IMG/VR virus record: IMGVR_UViG_3300032254_000001 | Location: 256,001 to 320,000 of that record | From: a virus | Taxonomy: Duplodnaviria; Caudoviricetes | Strand: one strand, 5' to 3' | DNA length: 64,000 bases | Shown: one piece after another, positions 1-30,015 of the stretch | How the letters are laid out: every line of letters starts with the position of its first letter | Position numbering within the stretch: the stretch's first letter is position 1 | Program-made: the position numbers and the translations under genes | The notes under the pieces: model-generated | Databases searched by the model: none | The model's input: the letters and a program-made list of their open reading frames with translations, nothing else | Told to the model about the DNA's origin: nothing

Positions 1-8
1 CTGCTTGA

Positions 9-404
9 TCAGATGTTAGTTCTTTCAAGTAGGTCTTCCTCTATTCTTTTCTGCTTATTCTCTTTACTAATATGATGAAGAAAGGCTGAGTGACTAACTT
101 GCACTAAAAATCCAAATGGGTTATTGCTTTTAGTTGAGTCAAAATGCTGATATGAAATTAACATTTGCATAACCGCAGCTTGAACTAAATCATCTGCGTA
201 CACTAGACTCTGATAATGTTTTCTGTGTAGTAGTCTATCCGCAAGTTCTATCATGTACTTGCCTAATGCTTGCGATACTTTGCCATCATTTTGTGCATAG
301 TCTATAGCAATAAGCAAATCAGAATTGTTGTTGATTGGACCGTAATAGCCCCACGGGTCAACTAACTTATCCCATACTGCACGTTGGTCTTTATTCAACA
401 GCAT
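9..404 (-). CDS. Truncated paralog of the gp55-like late sigma factor with an N-terminal AVWDKL tag
   Basis: DGKVSQALGKYMIELADR...KSNNPFGF...ISKENKQKRIEEDLLE aligns by eye with HGRTTNNLAMMYIKLCER...KSQNPFAY...LNIEKKMQNIRDDILE of the full gp55 at 28984-29961. Confidence 0.7.
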   Translation of the reverse strand: MLLNKDQRAVWDKLVDPWGYYGPINNNSDLLIAIDYAQNDGKVSQALGKYMIELADRLLHRKHYQSLVYADDLVQAAVMQMLISYQHFDSTKSNNPFGFLVQVSHSAFLHHISKENKQKRIEEDLLERTNI

Positions 405-684
405 TGAGTTTGTCCCATATAGCTTCTTTCTCTAAGCGATCATGGAACTCAATCATTGCTGCTTTTCTTTCTTTCTTAAAAAGATCAAGTGCTATCTTGT
501 GTGGGCAGTCCTCAGGGTACTCAGTTATGTTGTGTTCAGCTTCGCTTAAGCGACAAGAAACCCAAGTGTTGTCTGACTCGTAGTCCCTGCTGTGATCGCT
601 TATGTGTAATGTTTCATCCCACTCGTAGTAATTTTTACATTCAAGTATATCTCTGCACATACTGTCATAATGTATTCTAAACAT
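391..684 (-). CDS. Cys-containing hypothetical protein with C-terminal AIWDKL tag
   Basis: ATG at 684 preceded by GAGGA; shares NI..YPE.C.H and W.KL with 1765-2031. Confidence 0.7.
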   Translation of the reverse strand: MFRIHYDSMCRDILECKNYYEWDETLHISDHSRDYESDNTWVSCRLSEAEHNITEYPEDCPHKIALDLFKKERKAAMIEFHDRLEKEAIWDKLNAVE

Positions 685-937
685 CTTTCCTCTGCTCTGC
701 TGCAATTTCACTAATTAATATATCAGCTAGTTCTTGTTCAACATCTATTCCGTGTAGGGACTCTAGGTCTTTAGCAACGTCAACAGTCCAACTAGCACGT
801 AGCCTACGGGTCACAGGGCCAGTCTCCTTTAGGCGGTCCCAAACTTTTTCTTTCTCTCGTTGAATAGCTTCTTTCTGCTTCCGGATACCGTTGCGGATCT
901 TTCGTTGGTTCACTTGTATTGCTGTCTCTTTCATCAA
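677..937 (-). CDS. WxKL-tag mini-protein carrying a gp23 major capsid fragment
   Basis: KVWDRL followed by TRRLRASWT...HGIDVEQELADILISEIAAE; 21/39 identical to the MCP segment at about 8920-9040. Confidence 0.8.
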   Translation of the reverse strand: MMKETAIQVNQRKIRNGIRKQKEAIQREKEKVWDRLKETGPVTRRLRASWTVDVAKDLESLHGIDVEQELADILISEIAAEQRKDV

Positions 938-1166
938 ACTTCCATTCTCCTAGTATATGTTTATTAAATTCTGTCATATCTTTAGTCAGACTGTCAATGT
1001 ATGCGTCTACTAAAGACCAATCGATCCCATACTTCTGGGGGAGTTGTGTTACCCCAGATAATTTCTTCCATATGGTCTCTTCTTCTTTTTGCAGCCGCTC
1101 TCTTTCTTTTCGCCTCTGCTCTTTTCTTTTTCCGCGGGTCCTGAAACGTTTCCGTCTTGAAGTCAA
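804..1166 (-). CDS. Arg/Lys-rich WxKL-tag hypothetical protein
   Basis: TTG start with AGGAGG upstream; N-terminus MTSRRKRFRTRGKRK is paralogous to 994-1419; TIWKKL. Confidence 0.65.
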   Translation of the reverse strand: MTSRRKRFRTRGKRKEQRRKERERLQKEEETIWKKLSGVTQLPQKYGIDWSLVDAYIDSLTKDMTEFNKHILGEWKFDERDSNTSEPTKDPQRYPEAERSYSTRERKSLGPPKGDWPCDP

Positions 1167-1419
1167 AATGAAACCCTCCTACTGGTTCTATACCTGCTGT
1201 TTGTTCGCCCATTGGCTGTACACCAACTAAGTCGTCTGCAATCATTACAGGTGCTATGCGTCTCATTAACGGCATTAAAATAGCGCCAAGATCATCCCAA
1301 TCGTATTCAGGTGGTAGTGGCGGGCTAACATTTGTTAACTTGTTCCAAGTCTCTAACGACTCTTTCCTTAGTGCTTTACGCTTACCACGCTGCCTACGTC
1401 TGCGCCTGACACTAGTCAT
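994..1419 (-). CDS. WxKL-tag mini-protein carrying a gp23 fragment (Gol-peptide-equivalent region)
   Basis: ETWNKL followed by ILMPLMRRIAPVMIADDLVGVQPM; 13/24 identical to the MCP segment at about 9288-9360. Confidence 0.75.
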   Translation of the reverse strand: MTSVRRRRRQRGKRKALRKESLETWNKLTNVSPPLPPEYDWDDLGAILMPLMRRIAPVMIADDLVGVQPMGEQTAGIEPVGGFHFDFKTETFQDPRKKKRAEAKRKRAAAKRRRDHMEEIIWGNTTPPEVWDRLVFSRRIH

Positions 1420-1765
1420 CGTCGGTAATATCCTTAGGTTTAGGTTTCATTATTATAACATTATCATGCTCGTCGGACTTCTCGTATTTGTTCTTAATAC
1501 TATCTAACTTTTCTTCAAATGTGTCGCAGGCCCACTCGTTTAATTGATTGTATAAGTCAGCAGCACCAGGCGTCACAGTGTGTCTAAATGTTTCTGTTTT
1601 TGAATCATAATTGCTGATTATACGTTCTATTCGTATTACCCGCTTCCTGCGCCACCAAGACTTGAAATGAATAGTAAAAACATCATAAACCTTTGTGCCA
1701 ATCTTATGCTCCATTGTGTGCTCGAAGTATTCGATTTTATCAAAAAATTCTTTAGGTAGTATCAT
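1412..1765 (-). CDS. Hypothetical protein
   Basis: ORF tightly packed between its neighbours on the same strand. Confidence 0.65.
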   Translation of the reverse strand: MILPKEFFDKIEYFEHTMEHKIGTKVYDVFTIHFKSWWRRKRVIRIERIISNYDSKTETFRHTVTPGAADLYNQLNEWACDTFEEKLDSIKNKYEKSDEHDNVIIMKPKPKDITDDD

Positions 1766-2031
1766 TATAGGACCTGTATATGTACTGGATCACGTAAAAG
1801 TGATTTTACTGTTCTATGGGGTTGATTCAATTTCTTCCACATTATATCTTGTTGCTTTGCTTTATCTTTCGCAATGGTAATATCTTCAAGGTGCAAACAA
1901 CCTTCTGGATATTTAATAATGTTAATCGTCACACCCATTACAATACAGGAATGACATTTACCAACCTGCATATCAAACTCTCTGTGGTACTTGCATTCCT
2001 TTGATTTACAAAATTCATTAAAGTTATACAT
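1765..2031 (-). CDS. Cys-rich hypothetical protein with IMWKKL tag
   Basis: CxxxxC, CxxC and YPEGCLH; paralog of 391-684. Confidence 0.7.
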   Translation of the reverse strand: MYNFNEFCKSKECKYHREFDMQVGKCHSCIVMGVTINIIKYPEGCLHLEDITIAKDKAKQQDIMWKKLNQPHRTVKSLLRDPVHIQVL

Positions 2032-3055
2032 GCTCTACAACTACTTTTACATTTGGAAACGGTGTTATAAACTGCCCACATGCAGACTGAATTTCAACTC
2101 CGGTTGAAATTTGTATCTTTAAATTATTGTGAAACTTTGCAAACTGCACAATAATTTCCTTAAAGCGATCGCTTTCTTCCATTTCGTTAGCATCACATCT
2201 GTTATAGCGTAGTACTCTGAACTCGTAGTCTTCTAGATTCCACTTAGTGATAAAATCAAACAATGCTTGCACTTCTTCTTCGCTATCGTTAACACCATCC
2301 ATAAACATATGATGGAATATTAAATTATGTTTGTTGTTGTCTGCGTACTTTAACAGCTTCGGCATTGCTTCTTCCAATGGCATAGCTCCAGGAATAATTT
2401 GATCCCTAGTCTCTTGTACTGCACTGTGCAACGAATAAAACAATCTAAATGGACTGCGCTGTATGTAATTGCCCATTGATGATTGTGCTTCACTATGCAC
2501 AACAACCTTGTTATTTGGATTAGTTCCAAATGATTTTAGGTCTTCATTGAGCTCGTGAAATATGTCAATCCAATCATCGTTTCTAATTTTAGGTAGCACT
2601 GTTGAAAGATCAACACCATCTAAGCCTGCTGCGTAGTTGTTATCTGTTACGTAGTTTAACACATCGTTGGTTGCTCTGTACACCCCTGCTGGGTTAAGAA
2701 TTGCTTCGCCCATGCCCATCCAGCATACTTTCATGTATCTGCTTGCTATGCTTGCATCGTGTTGCACTGCATGATCAATTGCATCAATAAGATTTGATTG
2801 CACTGTAGTAATTGGCAGCTTCTTGTAAGGCATTTCTTTCATTGTTAAGTAACAGAAGTCACACTGCATCGGGCATCCGCCGCTAATCGATGCGAACACT
2901 GAATACTTATTTCTGTTAATAGGATTCATTTCCAGTACACCAGTTACTGGATTTCTAATTGTGTCGCAGCTTGAAACAGTTTTTATTGCAGTTTCAGACG
3001 TGTCGCTATGCACATACTTTGTTACTAGTCCGTCATCTGATTCAAAAACTTCCAT
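2024..3055 (-). CDS. RlmN/Cfr-family radical SAM protein
   Basis: SISGGCPMQCDFC cluster motif, MGMGE, SLHS and C-terminal SACGQ, all RlmN/Cfr hallmarks. Confidence 0.85.
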   Translation of the reverse strand: MEVFESDDGLVTKYVHSDTSETAIKTVSSCDTIRNPVTGVLEMNPINRNKYSVFASISGGCPMQCDFCYLTMKEMPYKKLPITTVQSNLIDAIDHAVQHDASIASRYMKVCWMGMGEAILNPAGVYRATNDVLNYVTDNNYAAGLDGVDLSTVLPKIRNDDWIDIFHELNEDLKSFGTNPNNKVVVHSEAQSSMGNYIQRSPFRLFYSLHSAVQETRDQIIPGAMPLEEAMPKLLKYADNNKHNLIFHHMFMDGVNDSEEEVQALFDFITKWNLEDYEFRVLRYNRCDANEMEESDRFKEIIVQFAKFHNNLKIQISTGVEIQSACGQFITPFPNVKVVVEHV

Positions 3056-3290
3056 TGGTATTCCTCTTCAATGAGTCCGGGTGAATTATTTCGTTACGAA
3101 CTCTGTTGTTTTCTCTTTCCCTTGCTGCTTCCATCTCTGCTAGTATCTCGTCTTGGATGCGACGAACTGCTTCTTCCATACGTCCTACCATGTGTCGTAG
3201 CATCTCTTCCCATTCCGTGTCATGGATAGAAGGTTCTTCCTGCAGACCGTTCTTTAAGCGATCCCAGACTTCTTCTTGCTCTGTGTTCAT
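3042..3290 (-). CDS. WxKL-tag helical hypothetical protein
   Basis: EQEEVWDRL at the N-terminus; overlaps its neighbours. Confidence 0.7.
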   Translation of the reverse strand: MNTEQEEVWDRLKNGLQEEPSIHDTEWEEMLRHMVGRMEEAVRRIQDEILAEMEAARERENNRVRNEIIHPDSLKRNTNGSF

Positions 3291-3472
3291 GCCGTTGTGT
3301 CCGATACTATTGTTATAGCCTTGTCAGCTCGAAGCACCTGTGTTGACCAATATATCGATCGATACATAAGTGGTTCAAATTTAACCTTAGGCTCTGGAAC
3401 ATGCTTAAGCTTTTCCCACACCAGTTCTTTATCACTGGGTTCTGCAGATGTTACTTTCTTGACTTTTGCCAC
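3287..3472 (-). CDS. WxKL-tag hypothetical protein
   Basis: DKELVWEKLKHVPEPK, nearly identical to the tag in 4112-4567. Confidence 0.7.
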   Translation of the reverse strand: MAKVKKVTSAEPSDKELVWEKLKHVPEPKVKFEPLMYRSIYWSTQVLRADKAITIVSDTTA

Positions 3473-3671
3473 TAAATTTTAATGCGAAAATTATCGCATC
3501 CTCCTTATACTCAAACCACCAACGTGTGTTAGTGTAATGGTGATAAAAACATCCACCATCTTGTTGTTCGACACACCACTTGTGAGCTTCTTTAATACAG
3601 TCACGACATGGTGGTGGAACAACAAACCATAATTCATTACGATGTTCCTTAGGTGGATTACACCACTTCAC
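3432..3671 (-). CDS. Small protein of the WC...[FW]xFExExDAxxFxL family
   Basis: WCVEQQDGG...WWFEYKEDAIIFALKF. Confidence 0.7.
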   Translation of the reverse strand: MKWCNPPKEHRNELWFVVPPPCRDCIKEAHKWCVEQQDGGCFYHHYTNTRWWFEYKEDAIIFALKFSGKSQESNICRTQ

Positions 3672-3919
3672 TCATCTTTACCTACTACCACATACTCGAC
3701 GCTAGATACGCCGTCACCTAAATCTTTGTGTACTAATTTAGTTTCCACCTTACCTCCTCGCATATCAGCGAACAGTTGCGATGCTTTTTTAAGTTCTTCT
3801 TCTGTGTTCTCTACTTCTTTCCAATTCGAAGCCTTGCTCAGCTTTTCCCACATTAATTCCTTATCGTCATCTTCTGTAGTCTTGCCAAGAAGTATTCTTT
3901 TAAAACGTTCTAAGTTCAT
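3668..3919 (-). CDS. WxKL-tag hypothetical protein
   Basis: DKELMWEKL; ATGA overlaps with neighbours. Confidence 0.7.
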   Translation of the reverse strand: MNLERFKRILLGKTTEDDDKELMWEKLSKASNWKEVENTEEELKKASQLFADMRGGKVETKLVHKDLGDGVSSVEYVVVGKDE

Positions 3920-4143
3920 TTGTCGATTGTACTCTCAATATCGAAATACATTGTTTTACCAGCTCCGCGTCGTGCTGCTATTACAACCAATTCACCTTTG
4001 CCAACACCACCACACAATGCTCTACCTAATTGCTGTTGGTACCATGTTAGGCCGTTGCCATTAAATGGTGGTACATACTCTGTGGATAACTTTTCCCACA
4101 TTAGTTCCTGCTCAGCGGCTTTTGAGGATTTTGATTGTGACAT
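3916..4143 (-). CDS. WxKL-tag mini-protein carrying an isolated Walker A (DnaB-like) fragment
   Basis: EQELMWEKL followed by GGVGKGELVVIAARRGAGKT, in only 75 aa. Confidence 0.7.
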   Translation of the reverse strand: MSQSKSSKAAEQELMWEKLSTEYVPPFNGNGLTWYQQQLGRALCGGVGKGELVVIAARRGAGKTMYFDIESTIDK

Positions 4144-4567
4144 TATTTGGATCCACCTCTTCTTTAGAAATACTTAGTATAGTGTCCATCATGCTCGGAT
4201 ATAATGAACTAATGTCATTATCAAACGTGCTACCCTTAGGCTGTGGAACATGTTTAAGCTTTTCCCAAACTTCTGCCTTTTCCTCTTCGATCTTCTGTAA
4301 TAAAATTTTAGCTTTAACACGGGTACCAAACACAGGACTTTTTGCAGCTTCCTGCAAGTCTGCTATCTCCATGCGGATCCGGTTGTCATGCTCCTCATCA
4401 GTATCAGTAATCATCCTAAGTCTAGCTTTTGCTCGTAGCCTAATGCCCATTGAATCATCCTTACTAAGGATTTTAAGATATTCCGGGCCATTGTTCATTA
4501 GCTCTATCTTCTCAGCTTCAGACATTGCCATTATTCTAATTTGGTCAAACAGATCAACTTCACTCAT
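4112..4567 (-). CDS. WxKL-tag protein carrying a family-B DNA polymerase motif A-like fragment
   Basis: EKAEVWEKLKHVPQPK followed by DISSLYPSMM. Confidence 0.65.
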   Translation of the reverse strand: MSEVDLFDQIRIMAMSEAEKIELMNNGPEYLKILSKDDSMGIRLRAKARLRMITDTDEEHDNRIRMEIADLQEAAKSPVFGTRVKAKILLQKIEEEKAEVWEKLKHVPQPKGSTFDNDISSLYPSMMDTILSISKEEVDPNNVTIKILKSR

Positions 4568-4797
4568 TTAAATTTTAATGCAAACAATGTTGCATCCTCT
4601 TCGTTTTCAAAATACCAATATGTTTCTCTAAATTCCACGTCCGCTTTATTTTCTTTATACCTGCGATAATATTGCCCTGATGAATTATGTCCTGTGCACC
4701 ATGATCCTTCCGCAGTATACGATCTAGATGCATGTCTAACTAATGTCACTTTATTCCACGGGTGGCCGTTAACATCGCCTATATCTTTATATTCCAC
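4564..4797 (-). CDS. Small protein of the FxFExExDAxxFxL family
   Basis: WCTG...YWYFENEEDATLFALKF. Confidence 0.7.
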   Translation of the reverse strand: MEYKDIGDVNGHPWNKVTLVRHASRSYTAEGSWCTGHNSSGQYYRRYKENKADVEFRETYWYFENEEDATLFALKFK

Positions 4798-4805
4798 AGT
4801 ACACC

Positions 4806-5225
4806 TTATTCATCAAACTTCTCATTTTTCAATTTATAAAATGTTTCAACGCTTTCTTCTGTGAACGGAACAAAGGTACTAGCCAATGCATCTTTGCCAG
4901 AAGTAAAATAAAATATCCAACCGCCCGGTACACGTTCAGCACAGGTATCGTCGTGTATATCTAAGCGATCATAATGTGGCATGGTATACAGTTGCCTGCG
5001 ATTCTTAGCATAGACCACTTCCCTTACTGCGGCTTCTTTAGCAGCCTCATCCATTTCTGCCCTGTGTTTCGCCATTATTTTGTCAATGCGATCACGGCGT
5101 TCTAATTCTTCACGTAGGCCTTTTGCCTTAGCTGCGTCTTTAGCTTCTTGCTCTTTCTTTTCTTTTAGTAGCTGCCGGTCTGCTTTACTTTTCCACATCG
5201 TGGTACTCCTCGGGAGGAGCTGCAA
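4806..5225 (-). CDS. Hypothetical protein
   Basis: Charged helical N-terminus and RVPGGWIFY C-terminal domain; start uncertain. Confidence 0.6.
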   Translation of the reverse strand: MQLLPRSTTMWKSKADRQLLKEKKEQEAKDAAKAKGLREELERRDRIDKIMAKHRAEMDEAAKEAAVREVVYAKNRRQLYTMPHYDRLDIHDDTCAERVPGGWIFYFTSGKDALASTFVPFTEESVETFYKLKNEKFDE

Positions 5226-5508
5226 TTGCTTCTAAGTCGTATACCACTCGTTTAATGTACTGGAACTTTGATTCCGGATCATCGCATAATGCCATCCATG
5301 CTAATTCCTTATTAAACTTGAATTTAAGTGTGTTAGCTACGCCATTGGTATAGCGATTGATACGGCTAAGTTCAGCTTCGTGGTCACGTTTAACCCGAAG
5401 GAACTGCTTTTCGCGGTAGTTAATATGCTGGGCTTGGCCTTTAGCCTTGTCTTCCAGATCCTTTATTTGCTGTTTAAGATCCTTAATTATATCGCGTTTT
5501 GATGCCAT
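5185..5508 (-). CDS. Coiled-coil hypothetical protein
   Basis: First ORF after the 5541-5569 promoter; ATG at 5508 (track start 5517). Confidence 0.65.
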   Translation of the reverse strand: MASKRDIIKDLKQQIKDLEDKAKGQAQHINYREKQFLRVKRDHEAELSRINRYTNGVANTLKFKFNKELAWMALCDDPESKFQYIKRVVYDLEAIAAPPEEYHDVEK

Positions 5509-5540
5509 AACTACCACTGAGGTTAACGAATTGTGTAGTA

Positions 5541-5569
5541 ATTATAGCAAGTTTTGGAGGGATGGTCAA
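5541..5569 (-). promoter_or_regulatory. sigma70-type early promoter
   Basis: TTGACC-17 nt-TATAAT with extended TG. Confidence 0.8.
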
Positions 5570-5808
5570 TCAGTTTTGGTGTCATCGAGTGTAATGTTAA
5601 CGCTTAAATAGGGGAATTCGGTGTCATCTACGTACTCAACATCGTACGGCTTTTCAATTGTGCAATCGGTACTTAAAAAGGCATCTACTGCCGTCTGTTC
5701 CTCTATGGATAATACCTCATCCTGGAAAAGCCATATATCCATAACCGATTCGAATCCACCGTGCTTAATAAGAAGCAGTGTCATTAGGTGTTCCTGTTCT
5801 GGAGTCAT
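5566..5808 (-). CDS. LILK[YH]G-family small protein
   Basis: LLLIKHGG...DIWL. Confidence 0.65.
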   Translation of the reverse strand: MTPEQEHLMTLLLIKHGGFESVMDIWLFQDEVLSIEEQTAVDAFLSTDCTIEKPYDVEYVDDTEFPYLSVNITLDDTKTD

Positions 5809-5855
5809 AAGTCAGACCTTTATGGGCTTCTGTGTTTGACGCTTTACAAGCCGTT

Positions 5856-5884
5856 ATGTTAACACACTATTTTGGTGTTGTCAA
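5856..5884 (-). promoter_or_regulatory. sigma70-type promoter
   Basis: TTGACA-17 nt-TAACAT with extended TG. Confidence 0.65.
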
Positions 5885-6033
5885 TGGCTGTTCTTTATAT
5901 GCACGTCAAAACCTTCTTTTTCATGCTCGTAATATACAGGAGTATTGTTCAAAATCTTTGCTATTGAATGTGCAAACTCTCTGTCTTCTGTCATTAGTCG
6001 TACGAATGTTGCTTTAAGCTCTTCGTCACTCAT
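5881..6033 (-). CDS. 50-aa hypothetical protein (not in ORF track)
   Basis: MSDEELKATFVRLMTEDREF...KNSH*; fills the gap between two same-strand genes and overlaps the upstream stop. Confidence 0.55.
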   Translation of the reverse strand: MSDEELKATFVRLMTEDREFAHSIAKILNNTPVYYEHEKEGFDVHIKNSH

Positions 6034-6247
6034 CTTCATTATCTGTATCCTTTGGATTATCGTATAGTTTGTTAAACTCTTTCTTTACATCTAAAACAAG
6101 ATTTGGTAATATTTTTATTGCATGTTCACCTAGTACTTCCTTCTGGGCATCACTGAACTGTTCTTTATCGTACAACCATATACAGAATGCGTTCTCTATA
6201 CTGCCGTACTTCAAAATTAAAAATGTTTTAACATCATCTTCACTCAT
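6026..6247 (-). CDS. LILKYG-family small protein
   Basis: FLILKYGSIENAFCIWL. Confidence 0.7.
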   Translation of the reverse strand: MSEDDVKTFLILKYGSIENAFCIWLYDKEQFSDAQKEVLGEHAIKILPNLVLDVKKEFNKLYDNPKDTDNEDE

Positions 6248-6447
6248 TTGCGTCTGGTCTCTGCAAAGAATATATTAATAGCATCGTGCAAGTGAGCGGG
6301 CATTTTATCGTGTGTATTGATCCACATATGGAATGCTTTGTCCAAATTGCCGTATTTTAATATTAAATATGATTCTATATTATCCATAGTTATCGGTCCC
6401 GGGTGATACGCTGTTCGCGTTACTAGCGTAACACACTCGTCTACCAA
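6244..6447 (-). CDS. LILKYG-family small protein
   Basis: YLILKYGNLDKAFHMW. Confidence 0.7.
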   Translation of the reverse strand: MVDECVTLVTRTAYHPGPITMDNIESYLILKYGNLDKAFHMWINTHDKMPAHLHDAINIFFAETRRK

Positions 6448-6465
6448 AAGTCAACCTCAATCTGC

Positions 6466-6678
6466 TCATTTTAAGTCATCTTTTAGTGTAACACTTACTG
6501 GATATTTAATACCATCTTTGGTATGCTCTAATATCATGTGTGCTAGTTCGGATATAGTAGGATCTGGGTCGTTCTTAAATACATCAAGATGCTTACCATA
6601 ACGTACCATTATGAACTTTTCTTCAAACGGTAAGGAGTAGTACTTGATGTGATCAAATACATTTGATTCATTTGCCAT
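6466..6678 (-). CDS. Hypothetical protein (distant LILKYG-like, FIMVRYG)
   Basis: Same-strand packed ORF. Confidence 0.6.
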   Translation of the reverse strand: MANESNVFDHIKYYSLPFEEKFIMVRYGKHLDVFKNDPDPTISELAHMILEHTKDGIKYPVSVTLKDDLK

Positions 6679-6847
6679 TATCTTTATCTCTTTGATCTAA
6701 ATAATCGTTAAGTGCTTTTACTGCTTCCGTTAAGTTGTCCTTATTTCTATCAGTATTGTATTTCTGGATTATATCCAATTTTTGTTCCGTTGTTAGGTAT
6801 TCCTTATTAAGGTTTTCCCATGTTTCTTCTTCAGGTGTTTTAGCCAT
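6668..6847 (-). CDS. 59-aa protein with a WxKL-like tag (EEETWENL); not in ORF track
   Basis: ATG 6847 to TGA 6668, MAKTPEEETWENLNKEYLTTEQKLDIIQKY...; first gene after the 6886-6914 promoter. Confidence 0.7.
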   Translation of the reverse strand: MAKTPEEETWENLNKEYLTTEQKLDIIQKYNTDRNKDNLTEAVKALNDYLDQRDKDNGK

Positions 6848-6885
6848 AATTCGTGCTTCTATCTTGAGGGCGCTTTACAGCACTT

Positions 6886-6914
6886 AGTATAACAATTTAA
6901 AATGCGTTTGTCAA
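6886..6914 (-). promoter_or_regulatory. sigma70-type early promoter (leftward)
   Basis: TTGACA-17 nt-TATACT with extended TG. Confidence 0.85.
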
Positions 6915-6928
6915 CCTTATCGTAATAT

Positions 6929-6958
6929 TTGACTTATACCCATTTTGCATGTTACACT
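6929..6958 (+). promoter_or_regulatory. sigma70-type promoter (rightward, divergent)
   Basis: TTGACT-18 nt-TACACT with extended TG. Confidence 0.65.
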
Positions 6959-6962
6959 CATC

Positions 6963-7035
6963 CTACGAAAGCGTAGAGCAGTTACACGCTTTTGGCCCAC
7001 TAGGGCCATCGAGGACGAAGTACTCGAGTAACTGC
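6963..7035 (+). ncRNA. Candidate structured 5' leader RNA
   Basis: CTACG/CGTAG hairpin; GCAGTTAC/GTAACTGC 8-bp stem enclosing GGCCC/GGGCC and TCGAG/CTCGA hairpins. Confidence 0.5.
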
Positions 7036-7053
7036 GAAGAATAGGAACTTATT

Positions 7054-7284
7054 ATGAATGTAGTACCCGGAGCATCTATAACAGCTATTAAAGATTCGTA
7101 CTTTATGGTTGAAGCACGTACTCCTTTTGAGCGTGATGGCGAATTATATCCATGGTGTAAGAATCACGATAGCGAAGGATATTTCAATTATGCTAATCGC
7201 TACTCTAGTGGCGGTAACGTCCGACCACAGTTTTGGTTTGAGTTAGAAGCTGATGCTATGTTGTTTAAGTTGAAATTCGCATGA
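7054..7284 (+). CDS. Small protein of the FxFExExDAxxFxL family
   Basis: WCKNHDSEGYF...FWFELEADAMLFKLKF. Confidence 0.75.
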   Translation: MNVVPGASITAIKDSYFMVEARTPFERDGELYPWCKNHDSEGYFNYANRYSSGGNVRPQFWFELEADAMLFKLKFA

Positions 7285-7628
7285 GACTTATAATAGCTGG
7301 AAGCAGACACTTAACACTTGATGTAGAAGGCATACAGGCCTTTATTAACTATTTAGGTATTACAGATATAACCGAAGTAGTGTGTGGCATGGCGCCTGGT
7401 ATTGATGCTGCTGGAAAATTATGGGCAGAATCTAATAACATTCCAGTTGAGCCGTTTCCTGCAGAGTGGGAGACGTACGGCAAAGCTGCTGGGCATATAC
7501 GCAATAAGCAAATGGCAGACTACGGTGATGAACTACTAGTAATTTGGAACGGTAAGTCTCCGGGTTCTCGTAATATGAAGACCACAATGGAAAAATTGGG
7601 CAAAAAGGTACACGAAGGCACATTCTAA
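7281..7628 (+). CDS. SLOG-superfamily (YspA/DUF2493-like) nucleotide-binding protein
   Basis: MRLIIAGSR, VVCGMAPGID, FPAEW..YGKAAG.IRN.QMA, W.GKSPG. Confidence 0.85.
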   Translation: MRLIIAGSRHLTLDVEGIQAFINYLGITDITEVVCGMAPGIDAAGKLWAESNNIPVEPFPAEWETYGKAAGHIRNKQMADYGDELLVIWNGKSPGSRNMKTTMEKLGKKVHEGTF

Positions 7629-7810
7629 TGACAAACGATTACCCATACAAAGTTAGATTTAAATGGCGTTACGGTGAAATGCTAAAGGATCTTTCTGCAT
7701 GGTGTAATGAGAATTGCACCGGCGAATATCAGTATCAATACACTGCTTCAGTGTTTTGGTTTAAAGAGTCTAAGGATGCAATGATGTTTAAACTGGCTAA
7801 CAACTTATGA
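7628..7810 (+). CDS. Small protein of the FxFExExDAxxFxL family
   Basis: WCNENCTGEY...FWFKESKDAMMFKL. Confidence 0.75.
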   Translation: MTNDYPYKVRFKWRYGEMLKDLSAWCNENCTGEYQYQYTASVFWFKESKDAMMFKLANNL

Positions 7811-7992
7811 TACTAAGCATTCCAATCAAAGATTACTGCATTGGTTGTCGTATGAAGTCTGTCAGACCGCAGTTTAAACCTAGGCAAGACGACTTCAATT
7901 ATCTGTACTTTAGTATTAACGATGTTGTGTACTTTGAATGGAGTAAGGAATTTGAGCAAGCTTTACTATGGGAGGCACTGCAACGTGATTGA
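7807..7992 (+). CDS. Hypothetical protein, paralog of 7985-8167
   Basis: PRQDDF...FEWSKEFEQALLWEAL. Confidence 0.65.
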   Translation: MILSIPIKDYCIGCRMKSVRPQFKPRQDDFNYLYFSINDVVYFEWSKEFEQALLWEALQRD

Positions 7993-8167
7993 ATACCAGC
8001 GACTAGACTATCCGTGGGAATGGTACGTACTTACTGAGAGGGATTTTATCTGTCGCCCTGATGACTTTAGGCGAATTATATTTAGAGTTGATGGTGCAGA
8101 ATTTATCGAGTGGAATGCAGAATTTGAACATGCTCTTTTAATAGAAAGGCTTAGCCGGTCTGCTTGA
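7985..8167 (+). CDS. Hypothetical protein, paralog of 7807-7992
   Basis: GTG at 7985 with GGGAGG upstream; RPDDF...IEWNAEFEHALLIERL. Confidence 0.65.
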   Translation: MIEYQRLDYPWEWYVLTERDFICRPDDFRRIIFRVDGAEFIEWNAEFEHALLIERLSRSA

Positions 8168-8192
8168 CAAACTAAAATTTACATGTTATGCT
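8164..8192 (+). promoter_or_regulatory. sigma70-type promoter with no downstream ORF
   Basis: TTGACA-17 nt-TATGCT with extended TG. Confidence 0.7.
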
Positions 8193-8280
8193 TAGTTCTG
8201 TCCAAGCAAGCGAGGTCAGTCGAACACGTTCGAGTCACCCGCAACAACAGAACCTACTTATCATGGATTACAACTCAAAA

Positions 8281-8306
8281 AAAAGCACTCTGTAAAGAGT
8301 GCTTTT
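8281..8306. terminator. Bidirectional intrinsic terminator
   Basis: AAAAGCACTCT-GTAA-AGAGTGCTTTT with A/T tails on both sides, between convergent units. Confidence 0.85.
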
Positions 8307-8346
8307 TAATTTTACTTCAAACTATCTAAGATAGTACAGTAACAAC

Positions 8347-9537
8347 TTAGCTAAAGCTTAAATTGCTGACTGCGACTTCCCCTAAATAATCTCCAGCATT
8401 ACCGAAAGATGATGCAGTATTCGTAAGCTCAATATAACCATAACGTGTCATAAAGCTTACAACTGGCTCAAATGTACTTGGATCAAGTACAACACCTGAA
8501 CTCATTAAAGGAACGTATGGGCAGTAGAACGCTGGTGCGTCTGCTTCGCTTGAACCTTTATAACCAACAAGTACTGGAGTAGTGTCGTTAGCATAGCTAT
8601 CAACGTAAACTTTCATTGCTGAGTTAAGAGTACCAACAAACTTAGTGTTTGTAGGAGCTTCAAATGTACCTTCAGTGGTACGTGCAAATGCAGAGGTAGT
8701 AGCTGACTGTAGTACAGTTAAAGAAGCTGGTGAAACAACTGCATAGTTACCAGCGCCACGACGTGTACGTGTAGCGATAAGGTTAGCTGTACGGTTGATA
8801 AGAACTGCTAATGCAGCATGTTCATCACCTACGAATGTAGCAGTACCTGAAACAAGTGACTGATCGTATGTGAATTCTGTGCTTGCTAATGAACGTAAAG
8901 ATAAAAGAATCTCTTGGTCAATTTCAGCAGTAATTTCTTGTGCTAAAGCAGCCATGATTTCAGCTTCAACATCAATGCCGTGCATTGACTGAGCATCTTG
9001 AGCAGCTTCAAAAGTCCAACGTGCTTGTAACTTACGTGTCTTAGCTTCAACAGCTTGCTTTAAGATCTGAACGGAAATGTTACGACCGCCTTCGCCTTCT
9101 AAGTTTGCTGTCTGTGCTGCACGGTAGTCAGCTTGTGTAGCGCCAACACCAGCTGAGTATGCTTGCGCAATCTTGAATGGTGATAGTGCTTCTTCGCCTG
9201 CTGCTGTACTAGTACTAGCTGCACTTGAATCAGTCATAGTAGAACCGTAACGTACACGAAGTGTATGAATCTGGCTTACAGGACCTGACATTGGCTGTAC
9301 ACCTACAAGTTCATTTGCAATGACTGTAGGCATAACACGTCGAATAACTGGTAAAATAACACGGTTTAATGTTGCAACGTTACCAGCGGCAGTAGCGCCA
9401 CTTGATGCAGATTCTGCTAAGTGGTTACGAGTGTTTTCCAAAATTACGCTCATTGTAGAACGTTTGGTACCGTCTAGACCTTCAAGCAATGCTTCTTTGG
9501 TCTCACCCCAACGGTTTTCTAATAGTGCTTGTGACAT
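8347..9537 (-). CDS. gp23: Major capsid protein (T4 gp23-like)
   Basis: LVGVQPM, TRKLQARWT, HGIDVEAE, FYCPYVPL and TRYG motifs. Confidence 0.97.
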   Translation of the reverse strand: MSQALLENRWGETKEALLEGLDGTKRSTMSVILENTRNHLAESASSGATAAGNVATLNRVILPVIRRVMPTVIANELVGVQPMSGPVSQIHTLRVRYGSTMTDSSAASTSTAAGEEALSPFKIAQAYSAGVGATQADYRAAQTANLEGEGGRNISVQILKQAVEAKTRKLQARWTFEAAQDAQSMHGIDVEAEIMAALAQEITAEIDQEILLSLRSLASTEFTYDQSLVSGTATFVGDEHAALAVLINRTANLIATRTRRGAGNYAVVSPASLTVLQSATTSAFARTTEGTFEAPTNTKFVGTLNSAMKVYVDSYANDTTPVLVGYKGSSEADAPAFYCPYVPLMSSGVVLDPSTFEPVVSFMTRYGYIELTNTASSFGNAGDYLGEVAVSNLSFS

Positions 9538-9558
9538 TATAATCTCCTATTTAACACT

Positions 9559-10659
9559 TTATTTTAAGCCAGCTAAAGTTTTAATATCAACGATATTGCT
9601 ATCATCGTTAGTATTTACTTTAGCTGTTTTATCACCAGTTACTTCTTTACGGCTTTCTGTTACTACGCGCTTCTTAGAAGGTGTAGCGTCATTGGCTTTA
9701 TTAGCAAGTACCGCTGGCAGATATTTCTCGAAAGCATTCGATAATCGACTTGTTTGAACGCTTTCTAATAAGTTTTGCATGATCTCACGCTTATCTTCGT
9801 TTAAAGGTGCTAACAAATCTGTCATAGCCTCATCACGTTGATTGCCTTCTTTTATCATACGAATTTCTTTGTTTTTACTTTCTGTAAGTGCTTCTAACTT
9901 AGTTGCTTTAGTAGCAGACTCTTTCAACTCTGTTTCCTTAGCTTCTAAACTATCTTTCAACTTACGGATTTCTGCATTTTCGTTTAAGTGTGTTGATGTA
10001 AACTCACTTGAAAAAGCTTCGAAAATACGTCGACCAAAGCTGTTCTCGCGAGCAGATTTGATGTCTTCTTGTAATGTTGTTAACTCTGTTGATAGTGTTG
10101 ACTTAACATGGTTCTGGACTTTAGCAGCACTTTCTTTAACGAAACGTGTTTTAAGTGCTTCTAGTTGTGTACGTGCTTCTGCAACAAGCTTAACCTTCGT
10201 TTCAACGACGTCTTGCTTATCTTTTGCAAATTCACGAACTTCTTTTGCTAACTGTTTAGCAACAAAAGATTCAACTGCTTCTAATCCTTCACTTTGGATT
10301 TGGCGGTCCTTACGTAGTTCTTTAATTTCTTCAGCTAACTTAGCAGTCATGAAATTATTAAACTTAGCACCGTTTTCAGCCATCTTCTTATTGAACTTAA
10401 CTCGATCTTCTGCTAATGCAGCTTTCTCTTCCTTAAATTCACTAATTTCAGACTGTAAACCTTCAGTAACCATTTTATCAAGAGCTTCGACCATTACTTT
10501 CTTGTCGTGATCGTAACGTTGTGCGAATTCCTCACGTAACTCAGTACGCAATTCTTCACGTGCTTCGTTTAACTTTGAATCCCAGGCTTCCATAATCTCT
10601 GAGCTGGTATCTTCGTTAATCACGTTACTGTCAAGCAATTGTTTGATTGCATCTAGCAT
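9559..10659 (-). CDS. Prohead core scaffold protein (gp22-like)
   Basis: Long acidic coiled coil between the protease and the MCP. Confidence 0.8.
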   Translation of the reverse strand: MLDAIKQLLDSNVINEDTSSEIMEAWDSKLNEAREELRTELREEFAQRYDHDKKVMVEALDKMVTEGLQSEISEFKEEKAALAEDRVKFNKKMAENGAKFNNFMTAKLAEEIKELRKDRQIQSEGLEAVESFVAKQLAKEVREFAKDKQDVVETKVKLVAEARTQLEALKTRFVKESAAKVQNHVKSTLSTELTTLQEDIKSARENSFGRRIFEAFSSEFTSTHLNENAEIRKLKDSLEAKETELKESATKATKLEALTESKNKEIRMIKEGNQRDEAMTDLLAPLNEDKREIMQNLLESVQTSRLSNAFEKYLPAVLANKANDATPSKKRVVTESRKEVTGDKTAKVNTNDDSNIVDIKTLAGLK

Positions 10660-10670
10660 TTTGTGGTCTC

Positions 10671-11303
10671 CTAAATTTTAAGATCTTTGATTAGGGCAAT
10701 TACGCCTTCTTTCAAATATCTTTGTACACGTTTGTTCTCGCTAGCTTCTTCTGCAATACCTAACAACTTCAATCCGCCTTTCATATTCATGATGCCTTCA
10801 TATATAGCTGTTGGGTACGCTTCAGGCGCACTAGGTTGAGCAACGATATCGACTGTGATTATCTCAAAGTCTGATACGTGTCCTGTAGCTTCGTTAACAT
10901 TACCGCTTCCTCTAGATGAAACGCCTAGCTTAACGCCTGCGCCTAACATCGTTTCAATGACTTTACCCATTGGAGTTGGAAGTATTTTTAACTTGCCATA
11001 ACCGTTAGCGCCTTCCATCCACATTTCTGTGATCATGTGCGACACGCGGTCTAAATTTATTTTTAAATCATCTGGGTGATCTATTTCGCCTAAAACGGAA
11101 TAGCCACCTGTGATTTGTTCGTTAAGTGTGCTAACGGCTGTGTTAATTTCTCTCACTGGATATATACGCTGATTAGCATTTCTCTGATCACCTTGGATGC
11201 AGATGCCTTTCATGTATAAATCTTTTCCGCCTTTACCGTCAGCAGCTTCTTCAAGCTGGACTTTAGCTGCGTCAAAGTTTAAATATTCTTGTAAGATACT
11301 CAT
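10671..11303 (-). CDS. gp21: Prohead protease (gp21)
   Basis: NANQRIYP, LGEIDHP, GVSSRGSG, D.VAQPSAP motifs. Confidence 0.95.
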   Translation of the reverse strand: MSILQEYLNFDAAKVQLEEAADGKGGKDLYMKGICIQGDQRNANQRIYPVREINTAVSTLNEQITGGYSVLGEIDHPDDLKINLDRVSHMITEMWMEGANGYGKLKILPTPMGKVIETMLGAGVKLGVSSRGSGNVNEATGHVSDFEIITVDIVAQPSAPEAYPTAIYEGIMNMKGGLKLLGIAEEASENKRVQRYLKEGVIALIKDLKI

Positions 11304-11312
11304 AATCTAACC

Positions 11313-12080
11313 TTAAGAACCGCTTAAGCTTTTCTTGTTAACACCAGCATCTTCACCCTTCTTCTTAGGTTCAGCTACTTTGCTTTCGTTTGGTTTTGTT
11401 GTACCGTCGCCTGGCTTAACTGCTGGGGTAGCATCGCCTTTAGCTTCTGTACCTGTTGGTGTGATAGGTTTAGCAACTGCGCCTTTCTTACCGCTGTTGT
11501 CAGCGTTAACAGACTTCTTGTTTACTGTGCCTTCTTCTGTTGAGTTTGAAATGCCTTTAGAAACTTTAGATAAGCTTACTGCTTCATTGAAGCGGCCTTC
11601 CATTTCTTCTTCAGCGCCCATTTCTGGTTCCATACCCATTTCTGGTTCCATACCCATTTCAGGCTCCATGCCCATTTCATCGCCAGCTTCGTCGCCCATA
11701 ACAGCATCAAATTCTGACATTAAAGCGTCTAACTGATCTTCAAGATCAACAACGCGATCTTCTAAATCGGCTTCTTCTTCGCCTTCCATGCCGCCCATGT
11801 CATCGCCCATTTCTGGTTCCATGCCCATGTCATCGCCCATTTCTGGCTCGGCACCCATTTCTGGTTCCATGCCCATGTCGTCTTCGCGCATGCCTTCTTC
11901 ATCTGAAGAGATATCGTTAATAAGTTCGTCAGCTGCATCGCCACCTAACTCATTTTCTCTATCCATTAATGATTCATAGATATCGCGAGACTTTTCAACT
12001 ACGATTTCATGAAAAAGTTCTTCGGCTTTGCCGTCTTCTTCATTGATAACGTATTCAATAAGTTGTTCAAATTTATTCAT
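11313..12080 (-). CDS. Acidic low-complexity prohead core/internal protein
   Basis: Position in the head module; MG[MA]EPE repeats. Confidence 0.6.
   Translation of the reverse strand: MNKFEQLIEYVINEEDGKAEELFHEIVVEKSRDIYESLMDRENELGGDAADELINDISSDEEGMREDDMGMEPEMGAEPEMGDDMGMEPEMGDDMGGMEGEEEADLEDRVVDLEDQLDALMSEFDAVMGDEAGDEMGMEPEMGMEPEMGMEPEMGAEEEMEGRFNEAVSLSKVSKGISNSTEEGTVNKKSVNADNSGKKGAVAKPITPTGTEAKGDATPAVKPGDGTTKPNESKVAEPKKKGEDAGVNKKSLSGS
11613..11880 (-). repeat. Coding tandem repeats (MG[MA]EPE)n in two blocks
   Basis: Repeated cccatttctggttccat-like units at about 11613-11680 and 11785-11880. Confidence 0.85.
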
Positions 12081-12204
12081 TTCTGAGATCTCCTAAAAGT
12101 ATACTTTCTATGCTCTTATTTAACAGGTAAGAGATAAAAGTAGGTGTTTAATAGGATAAAAAGGTGAGAAAAGGTGATTCTTTACCAAAATCACCTATAT
12201 TTGA

Positions 12205-12444
12205 TTAAAAGGGCTCGCCGCCGCCTTCGTCTGCTGGAGCTGCATATTGAGCTCTAATGTTCTTTAATTTTGCTTCTTTTTCGTACTCTCGGATGTCATT
12301 CATCTTTCGTAACTTGTTAATTTGCTTCAAAGTTAAACGTGTTTGACGCAGGGCATACTTAGTAGACTGGTCGTCTTCTAAGCTTTGCATGCCAGGAACT
12401 GCGGCATCTGTTTCGTTTAAAATTGTTAGGTCATTAATCTTCAT
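12205..12444 (-). CDS. Small conserved head-module protein
   Basis: RQTRLTLKQINKLRKMND; located between the portal and core genes. Confidence 0.7.
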   Translation of the reverse strand: MKINDLTILNETDAAVPGMQSLEDDQSTKYALRQTRLTLKQINKLRKMNDIREYEKEAKLKNIRAQYAAPADEGGGEPF

Positions 12445-12449
12445 ATACT

Positions 12450-12457
12450 TATTTATG
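12450..12457 (-). promoter_or_regulatory. gp55-type late promoter CATAAATA
   Basis: T4 late-promoter-like octamer just upstream of ATG 12444. Confidence 0.7.
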
Positions 12458-14156
12458 GCTCTTCGATATCTACATCACCGCCAGCACCAACTTCATCCGG
12501 GCCGTCAGCTTCAAGATCTAACTCAGCGTCAAAGTCTTCCATGTCGCCTAAGTCAGCATCCATACCGCCCGGTGTTACACCAACGCCACGTAAGTCACTA
12601 CCAGCTGTACCTGTTTCTTCTTCATCTGGTACATTGTTTTCTTCACGCCACATAGTTTCATTCTCAAGCATTTCAGCTTCAGTTAAACCTAAGAAACGCT
12701 TAAGTGCAAAACGCTTAGACATATAAGGAATATCTGCTGTACCACTAAAGTTGCCTAGGCGTGTAGCATCAAGCTCTGTTTGTCTGTAACTTGCAAAGTT
12801 CTGCGGATTATTAAACTTAATGTCGAAGATCTTAGCATCAATGTTAAAGCCTCTCCAACGTAAAAACATCTTAAACTCTTCGTTTATCTTTGTTACGATG
12901 TTGTTTTGTATACGTTCGCAGTACTGGTTAAAGCGGAATTCTTGTATTAAAGCTGTGCCCATACGTCCATCATTTAACGTGCCTTGGCTATCGTCTGGAC
13001 CTGTTGGTAGGTAACTTGAAGGTACTCGGAGACCACGGGCCATCTTGTTATTGAAGTATCTTAAGTCATCAATTTCAGATAGATTTTGTCCGCCGGGTAA
13101 TGTATCTACCTTCGAACCACGTCCTTCAGCTGTCTGTGGGAAGAAGTAATCTTCGTTCATAGACATTGGATTGTAGCTAGCATCTAACTGATTAGCACCG
13201 CCACTCTGTGTAGGGATTCTGCGCTGATGTATTTCATTCTTAACACGCTCTACAAAGCCCATAGCTAAGTGTGCTGGCATGCTACCAACATCTATATAAA
13301 AGATACGGCGCTCTGGCGCACGTTGTATTCTATAGATAAGGATAGCATCCTCAAGCAATTCTTTCTGCTTGTATACTTTATAAATTTGTTCAAGTATTGA
13401 TTGTCCAAAAGGCCAGTTGTAGTCAAGCCCTTCTGTTAAGCTAATGTGTACAACATGCTGAGCATCAACTGCCGACTCTTTCATGCCCATAGCAAAACGG
13501 CTTGCGTTTGCTCCGCCTTGGTCTGGAATAGTATATGTCTGCGGTGCTGTATAACCTTGATTCGGTTGTCCTGTTTGTGCATCAGTAACTGTCTTTGCTG
13601 CTACTGTTAGGTTCTCAAGGTTAGGATTAATGTCCTCAATAATATACTGCTCTGGCATTTTGCCTTCGCTTTCATTAACAATTACTCGTTTTACTTTGTT
13701 AGTTTCAACCCAGTTTAACTTAAATGTTTCTGGATCACGTATAAACACTTGGTCTCCGTACTTAATAGAGTTACGGAAGATTTTGAATATACGCTTATCG
13801 AATTCGTTTAGCTTAACCCATTGCTGTAGCTGCTGTGTAATGATTTTGATTTCGTTATCAGTAGGCTTATCGTTGTAATGAACTTCAAATGCTGTGTTAT
13901 TCTCTTCACTTGTTTGCGTTGAGAACTCAGATATGATATCCAAACATGCATTAACTTCACTGTCTAGGTCCATTGCTTCAAACTGATTATAGCGTTCAAC
14001 ACGATTTGGGTGTCCAGTGTACACCTCAGGTAGATTACTTTGGTAATTACGGAACCCAACTTGGCCGTTCTGATCACTGCCGCCACCCATGCCGCCACTA
14101 ATAGGACTCATGGTTCCTGTTGTGTCTGCTACTTTGAAATATTTACGCCACGTCAT
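12453..14156 (-). CDS. gp20: Portal protein (gp20)
   Basis: LLEDAILIYRIQRAPERRIFYIDVG, EDYFFP, TLPGGQNL motifs. Confidence 0.96.
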   Translation of the reverse strand: MTWRKYFKVADTTGTMSPISGGMGGGSDQNGQVGFRNYQSNLPEVYTGHPNRVERYNQFEAMDLDSEVNACLDIISEFSTQTSEENNTAFEVHYNDKPTDNEIKIITQQLQQWVKLNEFDKRIFKIFRNSIKYGDQVFIRDPETFKLNWVETNKVKRVIVNESEGKMPEQYIIEDINPNLENLTVAAKTVTDAQTGQPNQGYTAPQTYTIPDQGGANASRFAMGMKESAVDAQHVVHISLTEGLDYNWPFGQSILEQIYKVYKQKELLEDAILIYRIQRAPERRIFYIDVGSMPAHLAMGFVERVKNEIHQRRIPTQSGGANQLDASYNPMSMNEDYFFPQTAEGRGSKVDTLPGGQNLSEIDDLRYFNNKMARGLRVPSSYLPTGPDDSQGTLNDGRMGTALIQEFRFNQYCERIQNNIVTKINEEFKMFLRWRGFNIDAKIFDIKFNNPQNFASYRQTELDATRLGNFSGTADIPYMSKRFALKRFLGLTEAEMLENETMWREENNVPDEEETGTAGSDLRGVGVTPGGMDADLGDMEDFDAELDLEADGPDEVGAGGDVDIEEP

Positions 14157-14667: not shown

Positions 14668-14685
14668 ATACTTTTCTCTTTACGC

Positions 14686-14693
14686 TATTTATG
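14686..14693 (-). promoter_or_regulatory. Late promoter CATAAATA
   Basis: Octamer upstream of ATG 14667. Confidence 0.65.
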
Positions 14694-14726
14694 TGTTAAA
14701 CTTAACCGTTTATTGTTAATTGTCCG

Positions 14727-29961: not shown

Positions 29962-29987
29962 AAAATCCTCGTTGCTGTAGTGCATAC

Positions 29988-30015
29988 AGTATAACATGAT
30001 GTGCGTATTTGTCAA
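29988..30015 (-). promoter_or_regulatory. sigma70-type promoter for the gp55 operon
   Basis: TTGACA-16 nt-TATACT with extended TG. Confidence 0.6.

Follow-up and report, generated by a model that had tools for sequence, protein, structure and literature searches.

Introduction

The Gol region of the T4 major capsid protein (MCP) gp23 acts together with the e14 Lit protease and EF-Tu, and free Gol switches a defence on. Satellites encode capsid-redirecting proteins, such as CpmB of SaPIs, Sid of P4 and Ccm of PICIs, which are small or capsid-like and act on the capsid protein of another virus.

Bacterial sensors, including Lit and CapRel, read short capsid motifs, Lit being named as a detector of the capsid protein through such a motif, and whole core phage proteins (capsid, helicase, polymerase) are also read by bacterial sensors (10.64898/2026.01.04.697583). 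Essential proteins can also be inhibited by their own free fragments, which bind in a native-like way (10.1101/2022.01.04.474984; PMC10769210). We found no paper in the literature describing capsid-fragment mini-genes and no PHROG family dedicated to them. Here we describe a small phage gene in which a conserved piece of gp23 is joined to a charged helix, and compare it with these systems.

Genomic setting and resident capsid protein

We analysed a 64-kb stretch of DNA, hereafter the window, which spans positions 256001-320000 in a virus record of 344,483 bp that has direct terminal repeats. The stretch was present in two DNA runs, both from microbial-mat metagenomes, and no RNA run was among those listed. 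The resident MCP was 62-67% identical to the MCPs of the jumbo myoviruses PA5oct, Serratia BF, Salmonella PHA46, Vibrio 2.275.O and Sinorhizobium Phosso, and we refer to the resident MCP and these jumbo-phage MCPs as the resident clade. The mini-gene lies on the strand of the head genes, 7.4 kb downstream of the protease-like, scaffold-like and MCP genes and just before fibre-like genes. A megablast of window positions 1-4600 against cultured phages gave no match, and a tRNA scan of positions 1-20000 found none. The T4 late-promoter motif TATAAATA had 2 matches in the 64 kb against 6.9 expected; being below expectation, it was of no use for timing.

Table 1. Positions of the mini-gene, its parts and related features in the window.
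Feature	Positions	Strand	Remarks
Mini-protein gene, 85 residues	677-934	minus	ATG at 934; stop codon 677-679
N-terminal half, residues 1-36	827-934	minus	One long charged amphipathic helix ending in VWDRLK
Array tag VWDRLK	827-844	minus	End of the N-terminal helix
Capsid-derived payload, residues 42-85 (ATG numbering)	680-811	minus	Pfam Gp23 positions 147-190
ATG of the next gene (MFRIHYDS..., Cys-rich ORF ending AIWDKL)	682-684	minus	Overlaps the last codons of the mini-protein
GGAGA, likely ribosome-binding site	946-950	minus	11 nt before the ATG at 934; read from the sequence
Weak sigma-70-like promoter match	968-997	minus	TTGACA, 18-nt spacer, TG-CAGAAT; 10/12 matches
Upstream neighbour, 141 aa	994-1419	minus	Basic N-terminus, tag ETWNKL, first capsid fragment
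First capsid fragment	1189-1284	minus	Gp23 positions 6-37, inside ORF 994-1419
Resident MCP	8347-9537	minus	396 aa; Pfam Gp23 E 5e-96
MCP segment homologous to the payload	8908-9039	minus	Within the resident MCP gene

An intact mini-gene with a capsid-derived payload

An earlier note on this DNA had singled out a gp23-like fragment at 695-811. The minus-strand translation of these positions gave exactly the 39 residues that it quoted, which are the first 39 residues of the 44-residue payload (Table 1). The fragment is not a free-standing relic and belongs to the C-terminal half of an intact ORF. The ORF listing gives 677-937, beginning at TTG; we consider the ATG at 934 the likely start, since the homologues all begin with MKET there. 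The overlap of the next gene's ATG with the last codons of the mini-gene suggests translational coupling. The sigma-70-like scan returned 8 sites in the region, a number not above that of shuffled sequences (6.0 +/- 3.0), and a terminator scan of the region was not above shuffles either.

The Pfam Gp23 profile (PF07068) aligned ORF residues 43-86 with profile positions 147-190 (E 5e-12, 46.4 bits, cut-off 24.4), and PHROG 138 ('major head protein') matched the payload with E 2e-11. In BLASTP, the payload matched residues 167-210 of the resident MCP with 21 identities out of 44 (E 1e-12), all of them within its first 39 residues, which bears out the 21/39 reported in the earlier note. On these scores the capsid match is far beyond chance. 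A long alignment of S-RIM32 to the mini-protein was likewise carried by ORF residues 43-86, and the nucleotide comparison of the payload with the resident MCP gene showed no similarity. Only 44 of the 376 Gp23 profile positions were matched, and the 85-aa protein is without most of the capsid fold (A and P domains); together with the three helices and weak strand modelled by AF2, this indicates a fragment and not a capsid protein.

The AF2 model, computed on the family alignment, had a mean pLDDT of 70.5 for the mini-protein. A helix at residues 5-37 was predicted at pLDDT 79-90, and the payload was modelled with low confidence (pLDDT 52-78) as a weak strand (43-50) followed by two helices (51-61 and 65-84). 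As modelled, the payload would fit the secondary structure that we expect at this place of the HK97/T4 capsid fold, where a beta-strand is followed by a short helix and by the beginning of the long spine helix. A Foldseek search of the AF2 model against the PDB found nothing below E 7. We also predicted a complex of ORF 994-1419 (residues 36-96) with the mini-gene ORF (residues 38-86), looking for native-fold pairing between the two capsid pieces; the score was 0.01, which gives no answer. A capsid origin of the N-terminal helix as well, considered for the likeness of 'MKET' and 'RKIR..I.KQ' to the MCP stretch before the strand, was rejected as too weak.

The tagged array around the mini-gene

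The motif [VIMTL]-W-[DEKNQ]-[KR]-L had 25 six-frame matches in the genome, and 14 of them, all on the minus strand, were found within 4.5 kb of the mini-gene; about 14 small genes of this neighbourhood have the tag in common. The mini-gene is a member of this array, as a small co-oriented ORF with the tag placed after a charged helix. Its upstream neighbour, ORF 994-1419, carries the GVQPM stretch (the Gol-equivalent) within the first capsid fragment; this stretch is not in the mini-protein. The two genes stand side by side also in the related loci L006 and L011. Other neighbours in the array carry pieces of other kinds, namely a weak DnaB-like P-loop (3916-4143) and a fibre-type DUF2793 stretch.

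A third capsid piece was found 190-390 bases before the window start, in a tagged ORF of 66 aa (AEVWDRLK; G000:C1:255610-255810, minus strand). It is a continuation of the spine helix, at Gp23 positions 168-196 (E 0.027), and its homologues are kept in L006, L011 and L031; a comparable spine-helix ORF of 48 aa adjoins the strand-helix mini-gene of L028. Another ORF of 120 aa (804-1166, minus strand) runs into the two capsid-fragment genes, with overlaps of 173 nt and 134 nt. In its N-terminus (MTS, an Arg-rich part, RGKRK, followed by TIWKKL) it is a paralogue of ORF 994-1419, and its payload had no Pfam family match; it looks like an extra inserted unit, because L006 and L011 show only a gap of 100 nt there.

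At the edge of the window (9-404, minus strand), we found a tagged protein of 131 aa with a match to sigma-70 region 2 (E 1e-6). Its likeness to residues 214-309 of a 343-aa protein encoded at 28984-30015 (24% identity, E 3e-9) makes it a miniature second sigma-like protein. Finally, the array includes two small paralogous ORFs (3432-3671 and 4564-4797, minus strand) that share the C-terminal pattern W-[WY]-F-E-x-[KE]-E-D-A-x-x-F-A-L-K-F; they have neither the tag nor a family match, and a homologue is present in L006 (7631-7840).

Homologues, synteny and selection

We found eight small metagenomic homologues of the mini-protein (79-108 aa, 60-69% identity). The gene order was kept in both neighbourhoods that were inspected, L006-L010 (one phage) and L011, and partly in L031: a 115-aa gene, a 98-aa gene, the Gol-like capsid-fragment gene, the mini-gene, further tagged genes, which in L006 and L011 include the third capsid piece, and fibre-like genes. 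The dN/dS of the mini-gene between two homologues was 0.17 overall; in the comparison of L006 with L011 it was 0.05 over the first 36 codons and 0.15 over the payload. When the window was compared with either relative, synonymous sites were saturated (pS 0.8-0.99), and pN was 0.04-0.05 in the N-terminal half and 0.31 in the payload. Most invariant columns of the family also fell in the N-terminal half. In P0009 (L031) and in the mini-gene of L033, the payload helix has drifted almost beyond recognition and the N-terminal tag helix is kept, so that the capsid likeness may be dispensable in those lineages; P0009 carries extra capsid-like residues after the tag.

The listed cultured jumbo phages of the resident MCP clade gave a match in the capsid gene only, with no second capsid-like match. 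Among 80 loci of the nearest MCP relatives (80-89% identity), for which the DNA around the MCP covered up to 10 kb on each side and often less, a second payload hit was absent at thresholds up to E 1e-3, and relaxing the threshold to E 10 yielded one diverged tagged homologue, that of L033. The sequence comparisons show that 677-934 is a real gene under selection, and we consider it very probable that it encodes a selected capsid-derived mini-protein of old origin.

Comparison of the payload with capsid clades

We aligned the payload with the resident MCP, six clade relatives, T4 gp23 and gp24, six T4-like/cyanophage MCPs and twelve full-length gp23-family proteins that had been found by searching with the payload. 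Out of 44 positions, the payload shared 21 with the resident MCP, 19-21 with the other members of the resident clade, 17 with T4 gp23, 19 with Providencia PSTCR6, 22-24 with the cyanophage MCPs and 18-23 with other gp23 lineages. Mean identities were 20.0 for the resident clade, 20.4 for T4/cyanophage and 20.0 for the others, and the first two clades shared 18.9/44 with each other. The payload matched the resident and the T4/cyanophage consensus at 20 positions each: 15 positions matched both, 5 the resident consensus only, 5 the T4/cyanophage consensus only, 7 a third group only and 12 none.

The two halves of the payload leaned in different directions. The first 22 residues (RRL, W-T, GIDVE) were closer to the resident clade (11-13 vs 6-11 identities), and the last 22 (EQEL..IL..EI) were closer to T4/cyanophage (9-13 vs 7-9), so the payload reads as a mosaic of a resident-leaning first half and a T4/cyanophage-leaning second half. 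In particular, it shares W-T and GIDVE with the resident clade and is without the resident states DA, MxAL and EIDQE; it has the T4/cyanophage-like DL and EQEL..IL, but W-T/GIDVE in place of Y-S/T and GLDA, and both W-T and GIDVE were absent from the T4/cyanophage MCPs compared. The contrasts that had been drawn with the resident MCP (DL against DA, and EL..IL..EI against EIMAALAQEI) were real in the alignment, and the T4 gp23 string quoted in the earlier note agrees with the T4 record.

Constrained trees were computed with the six clearest members of the mini-protein family held together. The best tree had lnL -16412.8; a position of the family as sister to T4/cyanophage was 0.2 lnL below it (AU p 0.479) and a position as sister to the resident clade was 3.7 lnL worse (AU p 0.106), and neither was rejected. 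The phylogenetic placement proposed in the earlier note thus kept the payload from nesting inside the resident clade and did not decide between the two sister positions. A quick tree built from 57 rows, 27 of them full MCPs and the others mini-protein fragments, left the query on an unsupported polytomy, and no placement was drawn from it. Clade HMMs scored the payload at 46.8 bits for the resident clade, a narrow model of seven close sequences that penalises any outsider, 60.1 bits for T4/cyanophage and 66.7 bits for the third gp23 group.

The payload is not a recent copy of the resident MCP gene. It is about equally distant from the resident clade and from the T4/cyanophage capsids, and would belong to neither clade; a greater closeness to T4-type capsids amounts at most to a non-significant lean, and is false for T4 gp23 itself. 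The view that the fragment looks more like foreign T4-type capsids than the resident MCP stands in part: the lack of a recent resident copy and the DL and E.EL..IL..EI states speak for it, and the nearly equal means (20.0 vs 20.4), the 5:5 split of diagnostic positions and the 17/44 of T4 gp23 speak against it. As the signal of a foreign T4-like origin is not beyond noise, the finding is weaker than it had looked.

Other mini-proteins carrying the module

A phmmer search of 1.84 billion representatives with the 44 residues gave 112 hits at E 1e-3 or below, and the best of these were proteins of 57-130 aa and not full capsid proteins. We inspected the contigs of five hits, and each was a complete ORF inside its contig: P0011 (L026), P0013 (L025, 2 kb downstream of a resident-clade MCP), P0014 (L024), P0020 (L029/L030) and P0037 (L028). 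In no fewer than five additional phage lineages, the strand-plus-helix module stood behind a different leader. The leaders included amphipathic W/F-basic N-termini, Tat-like RRxF (P0059 and P0105), Cys-rich leaders (P0052 and P0082) and tags like the VWDRLK-type tag of the mini-gene (P0010, P0035 and P0096). In the metagenomic proteins P0059 (116 aa) and P0105 (80 aa), RRxF is combined with a hydrophobic stretch and resembles a twin-arginine (Tat) signal peptide; if these signals are real, some copies of the module would be exported.

The consensus of the mini-proteins matched the payload at 28/44 positions, better than the consensus of any MCP clade, and a common set of residues (R, L, W, T, E, D-L, HG, D, E-EL, L, EI) is retained across independent lineages of mini-genes. 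In L025 the mini-protein reads DL/ADIL and the MCP of the same phage, a member of the resident clade, reads DA/MQAL. As the same contrast with the phage's own MCP recurs there, these states mark the mini-gene family and not a capture from T4, and they would be due to descent or convergence. The order of genes at L025:3307-6851 is the MCP, a 653-aa DUF7487 protein and the 69-aa capsid mini-protein P0013.

Capsid pieces beside endonuclease-like genes

At L029:7558-8234 (also in L030), we found three consecutive small ORFs that cover Gp23 positions 4-40 and 146-188, in gene order and with gene-like spacing. Each of them ends in an aromatic-x-x-L helix (IYKELDKIL, MWQELQDRL and IFKQLDNIL), and a DUF7487/DUF559 endonuclease-like gene follows the three. 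L029 is an unrelated large-phage contig rich in sugar-modifying genes; a TerL-like 'RQLGKS' in one of its ORFs (91 aa) is not claimed, as Pfam gave no such match.

Endonuclease-like genes (DUF7487, DUF559, DUF723) adjoin capsid mini-ORFs in L025, L028 and L029, and the recurrence of DUF7487 beside the mini-genes of these loci suggests a link with homing-endonuclease-like genes. In T4 (segD), Ochrobactrum phage OC and Vibrio phage K469, g23 is immediately followed by a homing endonuclease gene. Given such genes beside both g23 and the mini-genes, a partial duplication of the 5' third of the capsid gene in the course of endonuclease traffic is a plausible source of the pieces. An adjacent endonuclease-like gene, as expected of an endonuclease-associated remnant, is present in L025, L028 and L029 and absent beside the mini-gene of the window, and a PF24308 search of the 344-kb genome found nothing. 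The nearest GIY-YIG gene (19032-20261, minus strand; 409 aa, SegE-type domain E 2e-31) lies 18 kb from the mini-gene, among three radical-SAM genes (20297-22099, 22577-24091 and, further away, 2024-3055).

Discussion

The best overall explanation of these data is an old, selected, tagged mini-protein derived from the capsid and acting as a mimic, to which we give somewhat less than an even chance. The module may work on its own as a soluble mimic of the conserved capsid segment, binding what normally contacts that segment and so titrating or diverting the partner; the partner could be a capsid subunit in the course of folding or assembly, or else a host factor recognising short motifs of the capsid. 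All members of the array would be docked onto one common partner by the tag helix, which is the part of the protein under the strongest constraint, and the T4-like residues (DL, ADIL) would be features of a free-standing module rather than marks of capture from T4. This explanation is supported by the 15 positions at which the payload keeps the residue on which both clade consensuses agree, and the idea of a generic capsid epitope, put forward in the earlier note, fits this consensus-like sequence. Weighing against it are the low confidence of the payload model, the drift of the payload helix in L031 and L033, the single capsid-gene match in the listed cultured jumbo phages of the clade, and the one comparable gene in the DNA (up to 10 kb on each side) around the MCPs of the 80 nearest relatives. 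Taken as a separate claim, action by mimicry is possible though rather doubtful. A wider reading seems unlikely to us, namely that the segment is an autonomous mobile 'capsid-mimic' module, fused by large phages to varied leaders, and that it forms, with sister mini-proteins that carry pieces of further core proteins, a phage-encoded library of conserved-motif mimics which titrate the host's sensors for the core phage proteome or sabotage rivals.

Two alternatives concern the origin of the piece. It may have been captured from, or have evolved towards, the capsid of another T4-like phage, so that it poisons the assembly of a rival in co-infection while the resident capsid (DA, MAAL) is immune. 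The payload is indeed not nested in the resident clade, scores higher with the T4/cyanophage HMM (60 bits vs 47 for the resident), has a T4/cyanophage sister tree only 0.2 lnL below the best (3.7 for the resident sister) and shows 9-13/22 identities to T4/cyanophage in its spine-helix half (7-9 to the resident clade); moreover, in two phages the mini-protein departs from its own MCP at the same positions. Against this, the resident-clade position is not rejected (AU p 0.106), the clade means are tied (20.0/20.4) with diagnostic positions at 5:5, T4 gp23 itself reaches only 17/44, W-T and GIDVE are absent from the compared T4/cyanophage MCPs, and the best-scoring full-length group is neither T4-type nor resident-type. 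The homologues in related phages point to long vertical descent and an old independent history with no recent capture. The capture that the earlier note proposed was not borne out, and we regard this explanation as very improbable. Alternatively, the capsid piece could be the relic of an endonuclease-driven partial duplicate of the capsid-gene 5' third, made next to g23 and split into small ORFs, in which the tag helix alone is functional and the capsid likeness is decaying. The endonuclease-like genes beside the capsid mini-ORFs of L025, L028 and L029 and directly after g23 in T4, OC and K469 would agree with such an origin, as would the order of the pieces, which is that of the gene in L029 and in the window, where fragment 1 precedes fragment 2 at a distance of 473 nt. 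The N-terminal half is three times more constrained than the payload, which has drifted in L031 and L033. However, a payload dN/dS of 0.15 is still purifying selection, independent mini-gene lineages keep the same conserved residues, and the aromatic-x-x-L helix at the end of all three L029 pieces is not what random decay would give; the genome has no PF24308 match, and its nearest GIY-YIG gene is 18 kb off. We consider a relic unlikely.

The mini-protein could also serve the phage's own head, as a small assembly helper or regulator. The copied strand and helix would then bind the resident MCP, its scaffold or its protease, and might for instance retain subunits up to the point at which the prohead core is ready. 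Its gene is on the strand of the head genes, 7.4 kb downstream of them and before the fibre-like genes, the corresponding genes of L025 and L033 are 1.5-2 kb downstream of the MCP, and residues common to all capsid clades have been retained in the payload. On the other hand, the payload does not track its own MCP and differs from it at the same clade-specific positions in two phages; the listed cultured phages of the clade have no second capsid-like match, most of the 80 environmental relatives are without such a gene in the DNA around the MCP, and neighbours in the array carry pieces that are not of the head (sigma factor, DnaB-like P-loop, fibre domain). A role in the phage's own head is very unlikely in our view; among the readings of function we favour mimicry, doubtful as it is.

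A short and highly conserved segment of the MCP thus persists as a separate, selected small gene, and recurs behind different leaders in several large-phage lineages. If mimicry is true, these genes would be natural counterparts of engineered inhibitory fragments, and could show which capsid surfaces are read by hosts or rival phages. If only the tag helix matters, they would be debris of structural genes, taken up as filler in a family of small proteins that carry the tag.

Comparison with known systems

The 44 residues of the payload give a gap-free alignment with T4-type gp23 (PF07068, PHROG 138, HK97 fold) over its conserved strand, its short helix and the beginning of its spine helix. The mini-protein differs from gp23 in that it covers only 44 of the 376 profile positions, too few to form the capsid fold, and in that these residues are fused to an unrelated helix of 36 residues. 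The Gol/Lit system is a precedent for a short free gp23 segment with an activity of its own, and the neighbouring ORF 994-1419 carries the Gol-equivalent; the payload of the mini-protein, in contrast, corresponds to profile positions 147-190, and the Gol-equivalent to positions 6-37. The satellite proteins CpmB, Sid and Ccm are different, being satellite-encoded, whole folded proteins or scaffold mimics with no sequence relation to the payload.

The principle of dominant-negative inhibitory fragments is the same as the one proposed here, a fragment with native-like contacts that titrates the partners of the full-length protein (10.1101/2022.01.04.474984; PMC10769210), though those fragments are laboratory constructs of bacterial proteins, and the mini-gene is a natural, conserved phage gene with a tag helix and a putative inhibitory action. 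Finally, the partial duplicates beside homing endonucleases near g23 resemble the capsid pieces found by endonuclease-like genes in L025, L028 and L029, with their gene order kept, whereas the mini-gene of the window has no endonuclease nearby and its capsid piece is intact, tagged and under purifying selection.
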